DNA of 64,000 nucleotides. It comes from Escherichia coli (GTDB lineage: Bacteria > Pseudomonadota > Gammaproteobacteria > Enterobacterales > Enterobacteriaceae). Positions 19,033 through 53,670 of the stretch are shown here, one piece after another. Both the position numbers and the translations under genes were made by a program. The notes beneath the pieces were generated by a model, which ran no database searches, had not been told where the DNA came from, and saw nothing but the letters and a program-made list of their open reading frames with translations. Each line of letters opens with the position of its first letter. The stretch's first letter is position 1. The stretch lies in the NCBI RefSeq assembly GCF_041886205.1, contig NZ_CP169029.1. One strand, 5' to 3'.

Positions 19033-19170
19033 CGTGTAATGGCTGCATGAAATAAACAATAAAATATAAATAACATTATCAGCCTGCTGACGGCTTGAAG
19101 AGAGTCACAGTATCTTGTGCAACATTATTGGAAAGAGTGAGGGGCGAGGTAGCGAAGTGGAAAAATGTTA

Positions 19171-19275
19171 AAAAAAAGCCCATCGTGGGAGATGGGCAAA
19201 GACTACACACAGCAATTCGTTGTTTCACTCAGGGGATTTCCATGCTTATAAATCAATATGTTGATTTATAACCGT
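19171..19275 (-). ncRNA. rprA: RprA small regulatory RNA (RpoS translational activator)
   Basis: Reverse complement matches the RprA sequence I recall (ACGGTTATAAATCAACATATTGATTTATAAGCATGG...CCCACGATGGGCTTTTTTT), including intrinsic terminator; coordinates +/-2 nt. Confidence 0.85.
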
Positions 19276-24713: not shown

Positions 24714-24937
24714 TCCTGACTTAATGCCGCAAGTTCGCCAAATCGACCTGGATTAACCTCCGTCCAGGTTCGATGACCTTCTTAATACTGCTTATCTACC
24801 GCCTGATATTGTTCAAAAATAATACTAATCGCAGTTTGTGTTAAAACGGCGGGTTAGCTTTATGAGATTATTCTTATCGCCCCTTCAAGAGCTAAGCCAC
24901 TGAGAGTGCCGGAGATAAGCGCCGGATGGGGTAGAAA

Positions 24938-24980
24938 CCCTTAAGCCTGTGTCGCACAGACTTAAGGGTTTTCTTATTTC
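24938..24980 (+). terminator. strong intrinsic terminator hairpin (CCCTTAAGCCTGTG…CACAGACTTAAGGG) followed by TTTTCTTATTT; possible 3' end of sRNA RydB
   Basis: Perfect inverted repeat plus U-tract seen in sequence, about 225 nt downstream of the ydiH stop. Confidence 0.6.
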
Positions 24981-35170: not shown

Positions 35171-37920
<2,750 letters not shown>

Positions 37921-39303: not shown

Positions 39304-40085
39304 ACCCGTCGCAACATGCTGAACAGTTTCAGAGCCAGTTAGCGAACTATGTGCCACAGTTCACTCCCGAATTTTGGCCGGTGTGGTTGATCATTGCCGG
39401 AGTATTGCTGGTTGGGATGTGGTTGGTGCTGGGGCTGCACGCCTTGCTTCGTGCTCGTGGCGTGAAGAAATCAGCCACCGATCATGGTGAGAAGATTTAT
39501 CTTTACAGCAAAGCGGTCAGATTATGGCACTGGTCGAATGCGTTACTCTTTGTATTGTTGCTGGCAAGTGGGCTGATAAATCACTTTGCGCTGGTGGGCG
39601 CAACTGCGGTCAAAAGTCTGGTTGCGTTGCATGAAGTTTGCGGATTTTTGTTACTCGCATGCTGGCTCGGCTTTGTGCTGATCAATGCTGTTGGGGGTAA
39701 TGGTCACCACTATCGCATTCGTCGTCAGGGGTGGCTGGAACGAGCGGCAAAACAAACGCGATTTTATTTGTTTGGCATTATGCAGGGGGAAGAACATCCT
39801 TTCCCGGCAACAACCCAGTCTAAATTTAATCCCTTACAGCAGGTCGCCTATGTTGGTGTCATGTATGGATTGCTGCCGTTGTTACTATTGACGGGGCTGC
39901 TGTGTCTCTATCCGCAAGCCGTGGGAGATGTGTTTCCTGGCGTAAGATACTGGTTATTGCAGGCGCATTTTGCTCTGGCATTTATAAGCCTCTTTTTTAT
40001 CTTCGGTCATCTTTATCTTTGCACCACGGGGCGTACGCCACACGAAACCTTTAAAAGCATGGTCGATGGCTATCACCGGCACTAA
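39300..40085 (+). CDS. ydhU: cytochrome b-type membrane subunit (PhsC/NrfD-like)
   Basis: 261-aa polytopic ORF; start overlaps ydhX stop. Confidence 0.85.
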   Translation: MNPSQHAEQFQSQLANYVPQFTPEFWPVWLIIAGVLLVGMWLVLGLHALLRARGVKKSATDHGEKIYLYSKAVRLWHWSNALLFVLLLASGLINHFALVGATAVKSLVALHEVCGFLLLACWLGFVLINAVGGNGHHYRIRRQGWLERAAKQTRFYLFGIMQGEEHPFPATTQSKFNPLQQVAYVGVMYGLLPLLLLTGLLCLYPQAVGDVFPGVRYWLLQAHFALAFISLFFIFGHLYLCTTGRTPHETFKSMVDGYHRH

Positions 40086-40088
40086 CGA

Positions 40089-40901
40089 ATGATCATTACA
40101 CGAGCAGACCTGCGAGAATGGCGTATCGGAGCGGTGATGTATCGCTGGTTCCTGCGCCATTTCCCACGCGGCGGTAGTTATGCCGATATTCATCATGCAC
40201 TGATTGAGGAAGGATATACGGACTGGGCGGAGAGTCTGGTTGAGTATGCGTGGAAAAAATGGCTGGCGGATGAAAACTTCGCGCATCAGGAAGTTTCCTC
40301 TATGCAAAAACTGGCCACAGACCCCGGAGAGATACCATTTTGCAGTCAGTTTGCCCGCAGCGACGATCATGCTCGCATCGGCTGTTGTGAGGATAACGCC
40401 CGAATCGCAACCGCTGGGTATGCCGCGCAAATTGCCAGTATGGGTTATAGCGTGCGGATTGGAAGTGTCGGCTTTAACAGTCACATTGGCAGCTCCGGTG
40501 AACGCGCACGGGTTGCTGTAACCGGTAATTCTTCGCGGATAAGCAGCGCTGGAGATAGTAGTCGGATTGCGAACACCGGAATGCGAGTACGCGTTTGTAC
40601 ATTGGGTGAACGGTGTCATGTCGCCAGTAATGGTGACCTGGCGCAAATCGCCAGCTTTGGCGCAAACGCCAGAATTGCCAACAGCGGCGACAATGTACAC
40701 ATCATTGCCAGCGGTGAAAATTCAACGGTTGTGAGCACGGGCGTGGTCGACTCAATTATTCTCGGGCCAGGGGGAAGCGCCGCACTGGCATATCATGACG
40801 GCGAAAGAGTTCGCTTCGCCGTCGCCATTGAAGGTGAAAACAATATTCGAGCCGGAGTCCGCTATCGTCTTAATGAACAGCATCAGTTTGTTGAGTGCTG
40901 A
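40089..40901 (+). CDS. ydhT: uncharacterised protein with about 13 tandem 9-residue repeats
   Basis: 270-aa ORF; repeats with the pattern xRIxxxGxx visible in the translation. Confidence 0.85.
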   Translation: MIITRADLREWRIGAVMYRWFLRHFPRGGSYADIHHALIEEGYTDWAESLVEYAWKKWLADENFAHQEVSSMQKLATDPGEIPFCSQFARSDDHARIGCCEDNARIATAGYAAQIASMGYSVRIGSVGFNSHIGSSGERARVAVTGNSSRISSAGDSSRIANTGMRVRVCTLGERCHVASNGDLAQIASFGANARIANSGDNVHIIASGENSTVVSTGVVDSIILGPGGSAALAYHDGERVRFAVAIEGENNIRAGVRYRLNEQHQFVEC

Positions 40902-42903: not shown

Positions 42904-43794
42904 TCAGGCTGCCAGATCATCGTTTCCGATGGAAGCATAATAAGCTTTTTCTGCTTCTGCCGGAGGAGTATGGCCCAGCCTTTCCAGCAATCGTCGATTG
43001 TTATACCAGTCCACCCACGTGAGTGTGGCCAGTTCCACTTCTGCACGGTTTTTCCAGCTCTTACGGTGTATTACCTCCGCTTTGTAAAGACCATTGATGC
43101 TCTCCGCCATCGCGTTGTCATACGAGTCGCCTGTACTTCCTGTTGATGCCAGTAATCCGGCTTCCTTAAGCCGCTGTGTGTAGGCCAGCGATACATACTG
43201 AGAACCTTTATCACTGTGATGGACCGTGCCGGACGGTCGACGGGCCCATAACGCCTGCTCCAGTGCATCCAGCACGAATGTCGTTTCCATGGACGATGAG
43301 ACCCGCCACCCCACGATGTATCCGGCAAACACATCAATGATGAACGCCACATAGACGAAGCCCCGCCATGTGCTGACGTAAGTAAAATCAGCCACCCACA
43401 GCTGGTCAGGTCGTTCTGCCACGAACTGACGGTTTACGCGGTCGCCTGCGGCAACGGCTTTCCGGCTGATGGTCGTACGGACCTTTTTACCCCGGAGAAC
43501 ACCGGCAAGTCCCATAACCGCCATGAGACGTGCCACAGTGCATCTGGCCACTCTGATACCTTCCCGTAACAACTGACGCCAGACTTTACGCACACCGTAT
43601 ACCTTGTGATTTTCATCGTATACGCGCTGTATCTCTTTCTTCAGCCAGTCATCGCGCTGCGCACGGGCACTGCGTTTATCCGGATGATGTCGCTGTTGCT
43701 GACAGTGGTAATACGTTGACGGGGCAATATGCAGTTCGCTGCATAGCGGTCCGACCCCGTACTGCTCACGCAGCTTATCCAGCAGTGGCATCAT
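42904..43794 (-). CDS. IS3-family transposase OrfB (DDE integrase core)
   Basis: 296-aa ORF; overlaps orfA 3' end at an A-run consistent with -1 frameshifting. Confidence 0.88.
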
Positions 43795-44117
43795 TTTTTC
43801 CAGAGGCGGTCGAACTCCGCCTTCGCAAAATAAGCGGAAGCCTGGCGAAGGATATCGTTACTGCGGCGCAGTTCACGATTTTCACGTTCCAGCTCTTTCA
43901 GACGCTGACGTTCAGCGGTGGTGAGCCCTCCATCACCGCCCCCGGTATCCCGCTCATGCTGGCGAACCCAGACACGCAGAGTCTCCGGCGTACAGCCAAT
44001 CTTTGGAGCAATGGAACAAATTGTCGCCCATTGTGAGTCATATTCGCTCTGACTTTCCAGAACCATACGGACTGCCCGTTGACGGACTTCGGGGGAAAAA
44101 CGAGTATTTTTAGTCAT
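43791..44117 (-). CDS. IS3-family transposase OrfA (HTH)
   Basis: 108-aa [26 protein letters not shown]... Confidence 0.88.
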
Positions 44118-44368
44118 CCTGTTTACCTCTTTCTCAGGAAGTTTAGTCTCCAGGATTCCCGGGGCGGTTCAAATCGACTCAGCAAGCGGTTTAAGCTGCT
44201 CAGCCATTGCGTCGCCAAATGGGCCATTAAAAGCAAAATGAAGTTGTAACAAAGTTGCCATAGCGATTCTCCTTCTGATAACGCATACGAAGACAGTGTA
44301 AATCTTTTAACGTATTGGATACAGAGAAGAAACAGAGGGAAAAAGGAGAAGACCAGATTAAGAAAATC

Positions 44369-44445
44369 TGGTGCGTCCGAGTGGACTCGAACCACCGACC
44401 CCCACCATGTCAAGGTGGTGCTCTAACCAACTGAGCTACGGACGC
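44369..44445 (-). tRNA. valW: tRNA-Val (GAC anticodon)
   Basis: Reverse complement reads GCGTCCGTAGCTCAGTTGGTTAGAGCACCACCTTGACATGGTGGGGGTCGGTGGTTCGAGTCCACTCGGACGCACCA; valV/valW assignment by position; +/-1 nt. Confidence 0.9.
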
Positions 44446-44449
44446 AGGA

Positions 44450-44526
44450 TGGTGCGTTCAATTGGACTCGAACCAACGACCCCCACCATGTCAAGGTGGT
44501 GCTCTAACCAACTGAGCTATGAACGC
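44450..44526 (-). tRNA. valV: tRNA-Val (GAC anticodon)
   Basis: Reverse complement reads GCGTTCATAGCTCAGTTGGTTAGAGCACCACCTTGACATGGTGGGGGTCGTTGGTTCGAGTCCAATTGAACGCACCA; +/-1 nt. Confidence 0.9.
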
Positions 44527-48399: not shown

Positions 48400-49548
48400 T
48401 TAGCGAGCCACTCGAAGGCCGTTTTCAACACCGCGTGAGAACACGACCTGCCAGAGCTGAATATCACGGGCGCGGAAAGCACCTGCACAGGCATTCAGAT
48501 AATAGGTAAACATTCGTTTAAAGCGTTCACTGTAGTTATCCGCAATTTCTGGCCATGCGGCGAGGAATCGTTCATACCACGCCATCAACGTAGTATCGTA
48601 ATCAGCACCGAAGTTATGCCAGTCTTCCATCACAAAGTGGGGTTCGCTGGATTGAGCAATCTGGCGTACAGAGGGCAGGCAACCGTTCGGAAAAATATAT
48701 TTATTAATCCAGGGATCAACATTCAGATCGGTTTTTTTCGAACCGATAGTATGGAGCAGGAATATACCTTCCGGTTTCAAATTACGATCCACCACCGCAA
48801 AATAGGTATCGTAATTTTTCGGTCCGACGTGCTCGAACATCCCCACAGAAACAATACGATCAAACTGGTCGTTCAGGTCACGATAATCTTGCAGCAAAAT
48901 GGTGACATCCAGGCCTTCACAGCGTTCCTGAGCCATTTTTTGCTGTTCGGCAGAAATGGTGACGCCGACCACGCTTACGTCATAGTTAGATGCCATGTAG
49001 TGCGCCAGTCCGCCCCAGCCGCAGCCAATATCCAGTACGCGCATCCCTGGTTTTAACTGCAATTTTTCACAAATCATTTTGAGCTTCGCCTGCTGGGCAG
49101 ATTCCAGATTATCGGCATCTTTCCAGTAAGCGCAGGAATATTGCATGAAGGGATCAAGCATGCGGCTGAACAAGTCATTACCCAAATCGTAATGCTCCTT
49201 GCCGACTATCCAGGCACGTTTTTTACTCTGCAGATTGAAGAGACGAGCGCCGGCAATACGCAGCGTGTCTTTGAAATGATGGGGGAGTTGGTTCTCGAGA
49301 CCTGCGCGTAAGACTTTGCTAAAAAACATATCCAGTCGGTCACATTCCCACCAGCCATCCATATAACTTTCGCCTAACCCCAAAGAGCCTTCTTGCAGAA
49401 CGCGTTTAAAAAAATCGGGGTTTTTCACACGAATATCCGCCGGGGCAGAACCGTTAATGGCTATACCGGCACGGCTAAGTAATTCGTTGGCGATACGGTA
49501 CCAGTTGTCATCCGGTACACTGACTTCTTCTATACACGATGAACTCAT
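48400..49548 (-). CDS. cfa: cyclopropane-fatty-acyl-phospholipid synthase
   Basis: 382-aa ORF with SAM-binding motif (VLDIGCGWGG). Confidence 0.95.
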   Translation of the reverse strand: MSSSCIEEVSVPDDNWYRIANELLSRAGIAINGSAPADIRVKNPDFFKRVLQEGSLGLGESYMDGWWECDRLDMFFSKVLRAGLENQLPHHFKDTLRIAGARLFNLQSKKRAWIVGKEHYDLGNDLFSRMLDPFMQYSCAYWKDADNLESAQQAKLKMICEKLQLKPGMRVLDIGCGWGGLAHYMASNYDVSVVGVTISAEQQKMAQERCEGLDVTILLQDYRDLNDQFDRIVSVGMFEHVGPKNYDTYFAVVDRNLKPEGIFLLHTIGSKKTDLNVDPWINKYIFPNGCLPSVRQIAQSSEPHFVMEDWHNFGADYDTTLMAWYERFLAAWPEIADNYSERFKRMFTYYLNACAGAFRARDIQLWQVVFSRGVENGLRVAR

Positions 49549-49838
49549 AGTTTCTCCATCACTGGTCGGTGATCAGAACCTTAAAACAGCGTAGACGCTT
49601 TTTGGGCTTTGTGAGAAATCTCGCAGAAAAAACCGCGAGTCTATAATCCGACGTAGAACAGAGGGAAAGGAGGAACCCTTGCCGAAATGACCATCCATAG
49701 TGAGTCGGGAACGATCCTGTCCCCGTAAAAACATAATATTTATCGTAGCTTTAACAACTCGAAATTAGTATAGGCCGCTAATTTCAATCATACAACAAAA
49801 TTTTGTTAGCAGCCTAAGTATAAGTATATCGATATAGA

Positions 49839-51050
49839 TCAGTGTGATTCGCTATGAGCGACTTCGGCATTGCCATGATTCTGGCAGCCAACTTCTTCAC
49901 AACGTTGCATCATGTAACCCAGCGCGACCAGCACTACTGTTGATAACATCACGCTGGTGGTGGTGAGCAATGGCGTGCTGATACTGATCAGCCAGGAAAC
50001 TACCAGACTTGCGAGGAAGCACAGACCCAGTTGTAGAGTGTTCTGCAACGCTGCGGCGCGACCAGTTGCGTGTGGGAAGGGACGCAGCGCCTGGGCGACA
50101 ACAATAGGGTAGATCGCGCCATTGGCAATCGCCATCACACAGAATGGGATCAGAATTTCGACCAGCGACACATGGCTAATGAAGCCCGCAGCCCAGGTCG
50201 CAATGACGCTGACAGCAAACAGCACCAGCAACCACGGTAATAACTGCTTGCCTTGCCATTTCTGCAGCGCGGCGCGACAGCCATAACCACCAATCAGAAA
50301 CGCGATAGTTTGCGGGACATAACTTAAACCAATAACTGCCGGGCTGTAGCCCATTTCACTAAGGATGAACGGTGAACCGGTCAGCCATGCAAAAAAACTG
50401 GCTGAACAGGCCGCGTATATCAGCACGTTGCCGCGATAGGTTTTAGAACGTAGCAGGTCGGTAAAGGTCAGACCATCCTGACTATTGTTACGGGCCTTCG
50501 TCGTGGGTTTGAGCCAGAAAATAGGCAGAATCAGCACCACGGTAATGGCAAACAGGGTGGCGAAAATCGCTTGCCAGGAAAAATGGACCAGCAGCCAGCT
50601 TCCTAACAGAGGAGCCAGGGCCGGAGATAGACCCACCAGCGGCATGATGGTCGCAAAAATTCGGTTAACTTTCTGTGAAGGATAATAATCCGTCACTAAC
50701 GCTTGCCAGATAACCGCCGCGGCGCAGACACCCACAGCCTGTACAAAACGCAATACCAGCAGCGTAGCGGCGTTTTCTACCCACAGCATCCCCAGACTAC
50801 CTAACGCAAAAATTGTCAGGCCGATTAATAATACCGGTTTACGACCATAACGGTCGGAGAGCGGCCCCCACAGAAGCTGGGCTGCGGCAAAACCGGCAAG
50901 GAACAGACTAAGGCTGGCACTGACAGCAGACGCAGGCGTTTGCAGGTCGGCCTGTATGGCGGCGAAAGCAGGCAGATACATATCGGTTGCCAGAAAACCG
51001 AGTACGCTCAAACCCGCCAGCCAGACTAAAAATCTTTTCCCAGGTTGCAT
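49839..51050 (-). CDS. punC: MFS transporter (purine nucleoside / drug exporter family)
   Basis: 403-aa ORF recognised as YdhC/PunC. Confidence 0.88.
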
Positions 51051-53117: not shown

Positions 53118-53161
53118 TCCATTTCACTCCAGACCCTAACTTCAGCTCCTGCAAAATCGCA

Positions 53162-53177
53162 AGGTAAACGTTTGCCT
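53162..53177. promoter_or_regulatory. PurR operator-like palindrome (AGGCAAACGTTTACCT) in the purR leader
   Basis: Match to PurR box core about 45 bp upstream of the purR start codon. Confidence 0.6.
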
Positions 53178-53415
53178 TTACACACCTTACGCACAACAAA
53201 AGTGTTGCGGTACGCCGGAAAAACGACACGGAGCGTCAGGAAGGGGTCAATGGCCAGTACGCAAATAGTGTAAGCGTGGAATTTTGGCCGATCTTGACGA
53301 AAAGGGGAAGTGGTAAAAACACTTATCATTATAAATGACGGGAGATTTTTTCATCACAGTGTGTAAAAATGCGTAATATCACTTTTTGTGTGGTAATAAA
53401 AAAGGAGAAAACTTG

Positions 53416-53505
53416 ATGAGCACCGACCTTAAATTTTCACTGGTAACAACGATTATCGTCCTCGGTTTGATCGTGGCCGTGGGTTTGACTGCCGCGCTGC
53501 ACTGA
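53416..53505 (+). CDS. ynhF: 29-aa single-TM small protein
   Basis: ATG preceded by AAAGGAGAAA RBS; translation MSTDLKFSLVTTIIVLGLIVAVGLTAALH; below the ORF-track length cutoff; +/-1 nt. Confidence 0.7.
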   Translation: MSTDLKFSLVTTIIVLGLIVAVGLTAALH

Positions 53506-53670
53506 TTTCCTCTCGAGGGAGCGCGTTCTCCCTCGCATCTCCTTCCTGTTTGTTAGCAAAATGGCAAAAGTGTTTTCTCTTTTTGTTATTTTCATTTTTT
53601 TGTGATTGCTGTCATGCTTTCGCCACTTTAATGAATATCGCGTAATGACGCGAAGAGGTGGAGATAAGGC

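Follow-up and report, generated by a model that had tools for sequence, protein, structure and literature searches.

The punC-cfa spacer of an Escherichia coli genome corresponds to the described cfa regulatory region with its small RNA- and Rho-controlled leader

Cyclopropane fatty acids, made by the synthase that cfa encodes, render the inner membrane stiffer and help E. coli and Salmonella to withstand acid and other stresses. Other long enterobacterial leaders are known that undergo Rho-dependent premature termination modulated by small RNAs (sRNAs), e.g. that of rpoS with DsrA, ArcZ and RprA. Earlier work on regulation through cfa's long 5' UTR is reportedly that of Frohlich in 2013, which is cited through a later paper.

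Transcription of cfa from a distal sigma-70 promoter yields a 212-nt 5' UTR, and transcription from a proximal sigma-S promoter a 34-nt 5' UTR (PMC6755755, itself citing Wang & Cronan 1994 and Kim et al. 2005). The long isoform alone responds to RydC and ArrS, its activators, and to CpxQ, its repressor (PMC6755755), and GcvB and OxyS likewise act on this isoform only (PMC12691595). Counted from the cfa ATG, RydC and ArrS pair at -109..-95 and thereby cover the RNase E site GG|AUUAU, which is cut between -100 and -99, while CpxQ pairs at -135..-128 and GcvB at -155..-140; the RydC/ArrS pairing (G101C) and the CpxQ pairing (G135C/C11G) were tested with compensatory mutations (PMC6755755). YieP, FnrS and OmrB are indirect inputs that work through RydC (PMC11340327). 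Rho-dependent premature termination at cfa was first reported in a study in which reporter activity rose in rho-R66S and 5' fragments were visible on northern blots (PMC7815308). The Rho utilisation (rut) site consists of a 16-nt CU-rich tract at +86..+101, counted from the distal start site, plus sequence to about +138, and C-to-G substitutions in the tract abolish Rho dependence (PMC12691595). A stem-loop at +78..+97 hides the rut core, as was shown with weak-stem and strong-stem mutants; CpxQ opens this stem-loop, which leads to more termination, and RydC blocks the access of Rho (PMC12691595). In rho-R66S, regulation by RydC, ArrS, CpxQ and GcvB is largely gone (PMC12691595). Between the 2019 and 2025 papers the weight given to RNase E and Rho has shifted, and Rho-dependent termination control is now favoured as the main mechanism, beyond mRNA stabilisation. 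This Rho-, Hfq- and sRNA-dependent expression was demonstrated in K-12 and partly in Salmonella (PMC6755755, PMC12691595).

The window analysed here is a 64,000-nt stretch of Escherichia coli DNA (NCBI RefSeq assembly GCF_041886205.1, contig NZ_CP169029.1). Its open reading frames and the RefSeq annotation of an identical O157:H7 record place cfa at 48400..49548 (382 aa) and punC (ydhC) at 49839..51050 (403 aa), both on the minus strand, as are all features of this region given below. The intergenic region, upstream of cfa and downstream of punC, spans 49549-49838 and is exactly 290 bp long, where a preliminary description had estimated about 290 bp. In the O157:H7 record, punC and cfa are the only RefSeq features over the spacer region. 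A 591-nt query spanning the spacer had 100% identity to many O157:H7 and related genomes, and this stretch was found in 5424 of 5426 complete E. coli genomes. Compared with K-12 MG1655, a single base differs in the 330 nt around the spacer (49692: G here, A in K-12).

Published positions were converted to window coordinates as 49548+N for -N (from the cfa ATG) and as 49761-N for +N (from the distal start site, TSS1). The landmarks GG|AUUAU, G-101, G-135, G-143/-147/-148 and TTCCTCCTTTCCCTCT each land exactly on the right base, and the TSS1-based numbering, checked against the RNase E site, G-101, G-135 and the CU tract, was at the expected offset for all of them. The spacer and the published long cfa 5' UTR of E. 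coli K-12 and Salmonella are the same locus, with the same sequence except at one base, and have promoter sequences, sRNA sites, RNase E site, CU-rich rut core and stem-loop at identical offsets. With a probability of about 0.95, we therefore identify the punC-cfa spacer as the E. coli cfa regulatory region with an sRNA- and Rho-controlled long leader, as published. The element is real, but it is already described in detail in the literature. That the leader is regulated in the window strain as it is in K-12 we infer from the near-identity of the two sequences.

For the comparison across genera, cfa loci were fetched via Cfa homologues from Cronobacter, Phytobacter, Kosakonia, Cedecea, Kluyvera, Enterobacter and Lelliottia, and from one metagenomic contig whose Cfa is 92% identical to that of the window. 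The punC-cfa synteny is kept at these 8 further loci (seven other genera plus the metagenomic contig) with a spacer of roughly 290-310 bp, and the equivalent of the leader is 209-213 nt long across eight genera. Kept in all ten cross-genus sequences are ACGTCGGAT, CTACGCT in the region of the proximal promoter, and the ribosome-binding site GGAGAA; TCTACGTCGGAT is common to nine of the ten, Cedecea differing by one base upstream of ACGTCGGAT. All genera sampled have a pyrimidine-rich tract at the position of the rut core. From about +61 to the ATG, conservation of the leader across genera is strong and exceeds that of the punC 3' end. An exact-pattern scan of species-representative genomes for CCTCCTTTCC-N(2-14)-CTACGTCGGA yielded nothing but five Escherichia loci and four matches by chance; the other genera were missed because their CU tract differs by a few bases. 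The scan supplied the Escherichia set (E. albertii, E. whittamii and two cryptic-clade genomes), in which the leader is almost invariant from about +61 to the ATG.

The spacer is divided into the leader (49549..49760, 212 nt) and 78 bp (49761..49838) that contain the sigma-70 promoter and the punC-proximal spacer. An extended cfa 5' UTR, as suggested in the preliminary description, agrees with the 212-nt sigma-70 isoform published for K-12, whose sequence is one base different (PMC6755755); it starts at TSS1 (49760) and accounts for 212 of the 290 bp only. Starts are not confined to the last 30 nt or so before the ATG, those at -34 and -212 being both published for K-12. A search for -10 and -35 elements had also been proposed, and in this respect the result was mixed. 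Our consensus promoter and terminator scan of 49400-50000 called no sigma-70 site and found no intrinsic terminator after punC. However, hexamers for the distal promoter P1 (49767..49795) can be read from the sequence at the published TSS1: a putative -35 TTGTAT (49795..49790), a 17-bp spacer and a putative -10 TATACT (49772..49767), which sit at the correct distance from TSS1. P1 was missed by the scan because its -35 matches the consensus at only 3 of 6 positions, below the threshold. The sequence of P1 and TSS1 is identical to K-12; across genera, the -10 is invariant in 9 of 10 sequences (one base off in Cedecea) and the -35 reads TTG(T/A)AT. For the proximal sigma-S promoter P2 (49582..49595), the published 34-nt leader (PMC6755755) sets TSS2 at 49582, and TCTACGCT (49595..49588) before it is probably a sigma-S-type -10 with an upstream C. 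The P2 region is likewise identical to K-12. Both start sites of the window strain are presumably carried over from K-12 and Salmonella.

Upstream of P1, the cross-genus alignment revealed a 12-bp inverted repeat, TTAGGCTGCTAA (TTAG-N4-CTAA; 49806..49817), centred about -51.5 from TSS1. All ten sequences, which come from nine genera, carry the same TTAG and TGCTAA although the flanks have diverged, and for this reason we regard the repeat as a candidate activator or repressor site. TTAG-N4-CTAA has 2 matches in the window versus 0.68 expected. An assignment to PunR or YieP was rejected, since no similar motif is present in the punR-punC spacer or near rydC. A literature search for factors binding the cfa promoter or the repeat yielded nothing, and we know of no factor that binds the repeat. 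Two palindromes were also observed in the spacer. The AT-rich AACAAAATTTTGTT (49793-49806, minus strand) overlaps or adjoins the P1 -35, is partly conserved (AACAGTTTTCTGTT in Phytobacter and Kluyvera) and may be UP-element-like. The second, GCGAGATTTCTCAC (49609-49625, minus strand), is a nearly perfect DNA palindrome of the form 6+2+6, with GTGAGATTTCTCAC in 7 of 8 other genera. It is located about 28-41 bp upstream of the sigma-S start, overlaps the 3' arm of hairpin H3 (see below) and might serve for protein binding or for an alternative pairing of the RNA.

The description of the leader as structured is correct locally, not globally. The minimum free energy of the whole leader was not better than that of shuffles (-63.5 versus -60.9 +/- 4.8 kcal/mol, z = -0.54), but RNAalifold predicted four local hairpins that are kept in eight enterobacterial genera, and three of these hairpins show compensatory changes. 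In the four helices 96.2% of the cells are paired, compared to 45-60% when the partners were slid by 1-3 columns, and 5 compensatory pairs were counted versus 0-2 in the slid controls. In a shuffle test, the observed value was attained by no more than 1 in 500 shuffles for four of the five measures. Hairpin H1 (+36..+55, CGGGGAC-AGGAUC-GUUCCCG, 49706..49725) has 3 compensatory pairs, and the published stem-loop, recovered as helix 2 at +78..+98 (49663..49683), has 1. Hairpin H3 (+122..+141, CUCGCGG-UUUUUU-CUGCGAG, 49620..49639) also has 1, a G-C to A-U change, and falls inside the region +118..+138 that is needed for Rho dependence according to truncation data (PMC12691595). The fourth hairpin is adjacent to the ribosome-binding site (+184..+208, UCU-G-AUCAC-loop-GUGAU-GG-AGA, 49553..49577), overlaps GGAGA and is contained in both isoforms. 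Its pairing is complete (100%) in 9 sequences although the loop varies, and it has 0 compensatory pairs and thus no covariation support because 7 of its 8 pairs never vary.

H1 deserves attention for a further reason, as a published 3' end at +59 (PMC12691595) lies 4 nt downstream of it. The first ~59 nt of the leader might accumulate as a stable 5'-UTR-derived small RNA that ends at H1 and has a trans function of its own, for example as an sRNA sponge. Besides the 3' end, the 5' fragments on northern blots (PMC7815308) would fit this idea, as would the fact that H1 is the best-covarying helix and overlaps the Hfq-binding region (-195..-161, 49709..49743), which is required for CpxQ repression (PMC6755755). 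In Cronobacter, H1 is followed by TTTTTTATTT, a U-tract that makes it resemble an intrinsic terminator. However, H1 of E. coli lacks a following U-tract, trimming back to a hairpin after Rho termination is a common origin of such 3' ends, and no target or phenotype is known. We consider this small RNA unlikely; it, or an attenuator at H1, would possibly be an addition to sRNA- and Rho-dependent control of the leader, not a replacement for it.

A long conserved leader with covarying hairpins and premature 3' ends would also be expected of a metabolite- or ion-sensing riboswitch or a thermosensor that works without trans factors. Yet no Rfam family matched the cfa strand between 48000 and 51500 at E <= 1, and no match at gathering score covered the leader. 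The hairpins are short and independent, without a multi-helix junction, and the conserved blocks that stay single-stranded fall on validated sRNA sites. Moreover, regulation is lost upon mutating the sRNAs or Rho (PMC6755755, PMC12691595), and we regard an autonomous sensor as very improbable.

Elsewhere in the window, Rfam produced several matches. The ALIL pseudoknot (RF01497) has a full-length match of 120 bits at 43720-43836 (minus strand), at the ydhR-ydhS junction and the beginning of ydhS in the O157 annotation, and no insertion sequence is annotated there. Two tRNA-Val genes occur together with an opposite-strand match to HPnc0260, an 'antisense RNA', that overlaps one of them (44245-44407, plus strand; 44372-44526, minus strand). 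The sRNA families STnc550 (over the cydH/ynhF region), RprA and RydB were found at gathering score, at 53118-53508 (plus strand), 19168-19275 (minus strand) and 24879-24939 (plus strand). In the identical O157:H7 record NZ_AP018488.1, ydhT is annotated as frameshifted and ydhW with an internal stop (2285333-2286144 and 2287662-2288300, corresponding to about 39400-40215 and 37240-37885 of the window); they are possible pseudogenes in the ydhYVWXUT oxidoreductase cluster.

Access of Rho could also be set by a translated upstream ORF, as at mdtU-mdtJI. In that other E. coli leader an upstream ORF is known to control Rho termination (PMC7815308), and the cfa leader contains a 53-codon ORF (49734..49573, start at +27) with a nested 41-codon ORF from an ATG near +63 that is kept in 7 of 9 sequences. 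We nevertheless rejected an upstream-ORF attenuator. Reading frame, length (17-46 codons) and peptide vary from genus to genus, the frame being shifted by single-base indels in spite of the conserved nucleotides, and the ORF is missing from Cronobacter. Nor is there a Shine-Dalgarno sequence ahead of the ATG. Since the published sRNA and stem-loop mutants account for the regulation without translation (PMC12691595), we give this explanation only a slight chance.

The preliminary description had regarded the segment as an sRNA-target platform rather than spacer and had named RydC as an example. This agrees with the published control by RydC, ArrS, CpxQ, GcvB and OxyS and with our own pairing scan. 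On the window, the activator site lies at 49643..49657, with RydC at -109..-99 (49657..49647) and ArrS at -105..-95 (49653..49643), as established by G101C compensatory tests and primer extension (PMC6755755); it includes G-101 (49649) and the RNase E site GG|AUUAU (49649..49643), which is cut between 49648 and 49647. The CU-rich rut core TTCCTCCTTTCCCTCT occupies 49660..49675, and the stem-loop that hides it (GGCAAGG-GUUCCU-CCUUUCC, with a mismatch at C80) occupies 49664..49683, in a sequence that fits the published G78, G79 and C80 (PMC12691595). The CpxQ site (49675..49696) combines a core at 49683..49676 (-135..-128), validated by a compensatory test and footprint (PMC6755755), with a second helix at 49696..49690 that our scan predicts for the G allele. 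It contains G-135 (= G78) at 49683 and G-143, G-147 and G-148 at 49691, 49695 and 49696. The GcvB site (-155..-140, 49688..49703) contains the sole difference from K-12; it is placed there by the IntaRNA entry in Table S1 and the RNase T1 footprint described in the legend of Figure S1C (PMC6755755).

For the scan, sRNA sequences were taken from the K-12 annotation, and windowed hybridisation was combined with accessibility, dinucleotide-shuffled leaders serving as controls. It recovered the RydC site, nt 2-14 of RydC pairing with -109..-98 (+104..+115) at an Etot of -14.7 kcal/mol (0/60 shuffles as good). For CpxQ, nt 3-25 pair with -148..-127 (core -135..-127; Etot -11.1 kcal/mol, 0/60 shuffles as good), for GcvB, nt 154-171 pair with -156..-139 (+57..+74; Etot -14.0 kcal/mol, 0/30), and for ArrS, nt 1-11 pair with -105..-94 (Etot -7.8 kcal/mol, 2/60). 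The sites match those in the IntaRNA table of PMC6755755, and the energies are close to those listed there. A calculation of full-length sRNA/leader duplexes gave uninformative end-to-end duplexes that were no better than shuffles and was superseded by the windowed scan.

These results also bear on whether the spacer might be mostly inert, i.e. a promoter near cfa and otherwise a gene separator. The consensus scans without promoter or terminator, the z-score of -0.54 and the missing Rfam match would all be expected of such a sequence. But an inert spacer would not be nearly invariant in Escherichia from about +61 and more conserved across genera than the punC 3' end, nor would its hairpins covary or its sRNA pairing exceed that of shuffles. 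It is refuted by the published reporter and compensatory-mutation data on a sequence one base different, and we give it practically no credence.

The mechanism demonstrated in K-12, and partly in Salmonella, would operate in the window strain as follows. Transcripts from P1, with its weak -35, would start at 49760 and carry the untranslated 212-nt leader. Rho would load on the CU-rich site (49675..49660 plus ~40 nt downstream) and terminate transcription early, with the short stem-loop at 49683..49664 partly hiding the rut site and limiting Rho loading. CpxQ, which signals envelope stress, and, just upstream, GcvB would pair on or next to the 5' arm of the stem, so that the rut site is exposed and cfa output falls. 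RydC and the acid-related ArrS would pair just 3' of the tract (49657..49643), covering part of the rut site and the RNase E site (49648/49647) and thereby raising cfa output. Hfq bound close to the leader's 5' end (49743..49709) would help CpxQ. In stationary phase, RpoS would drive the internal promoter (start 49582), whose 34-nt leader would bypass all leader controls.

The single base that differs from K-12 lies at -144. The G at 49692 is also found in other Escherichia species, and most other genera have G at the aligned position, so that the A of K-12 appears to be derived and G the ancestral Escherichia allele. The 61-mer around 49692 with G is identical in 2566 of 5423 (47%) complete E. 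coli genomes. While the published K-12 leader has A at -144, the leader of the window has G and with it a predicted extra CpxQ helix, the second one, of 7 bp, with CpxQ nt 18-24, in which C20 of CpxQ is the predicted partner of G-144. Some genera carry GGAAGG where GGATGG would otherwise stand at +65..+70. For the G versus the K-12 A allele, the predicted pairing energies with CpxQ are -24.4 versus -14.3 (Ehyb) and -11.1 versus -7.7 kcal/mol (Etot). With GcvB, one A-U pair becomes G-U, and the predicted pairing weakens from -16.8 (A) to -14.0 (G). According to these models, base 49692 could change the strength of the GcvB and CpxQ inputs. CpxQ itself is polymorphic, as full identity to the K-12 sequence is limited to 899 of 5421 E. 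coli genomes. A seed change was rejected as the nature of this polymorphism on the basis of one aligned non-K-12 strain, in which C-to-A at nt 42, within the terminator loop, is all that distinguishes CpxQ from that of K-12; the seed is unchanged.

Putting the two less familiar features together, we tentatively propose, as a possibility with the odds against it, that P1, which has been called constitutive, may receive a so far undescribed input from a transcription factor at TTAG-N4-CTAA and that, separately, the G at -144 may strengthen CpxQ repression and weaken GcvB repression in about half of the E. coli lineages, including O157:H7, relative to K-12. Possibly useful additions are limited to this lineage-specific base, in the region where CpxQ and GcvB pair, and to the conserved repeat that precedes P1. 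Otherwise, the leader in this window holds no new biology and confirms a real and well-documented element.

The cfa leader serves as a model of one gene being moved up or down by several small RNAs via the access of Rho to the nascent RNA. Like leaders of the rpoS type, it is long and untranslated, contains a rut site and can be shielded from Rho by sRNA pairing. In contrast to these, CpxQ increases termination at cfa by opening the stem-loop, so that control is exerted in both directions (PMC12691595). Like cfa, mdtU-mdtJI and other premature-termination leaders (PMC7815308) have Rho-dependent 3' ends in the leader, and their reporters go up in rho-R66S. However, the input at mdtU-mdtJI is a metabolite-sensitive upstream ORF, whereas cfa receives its inputs from sRNAs and has no conserved upstream ORF.
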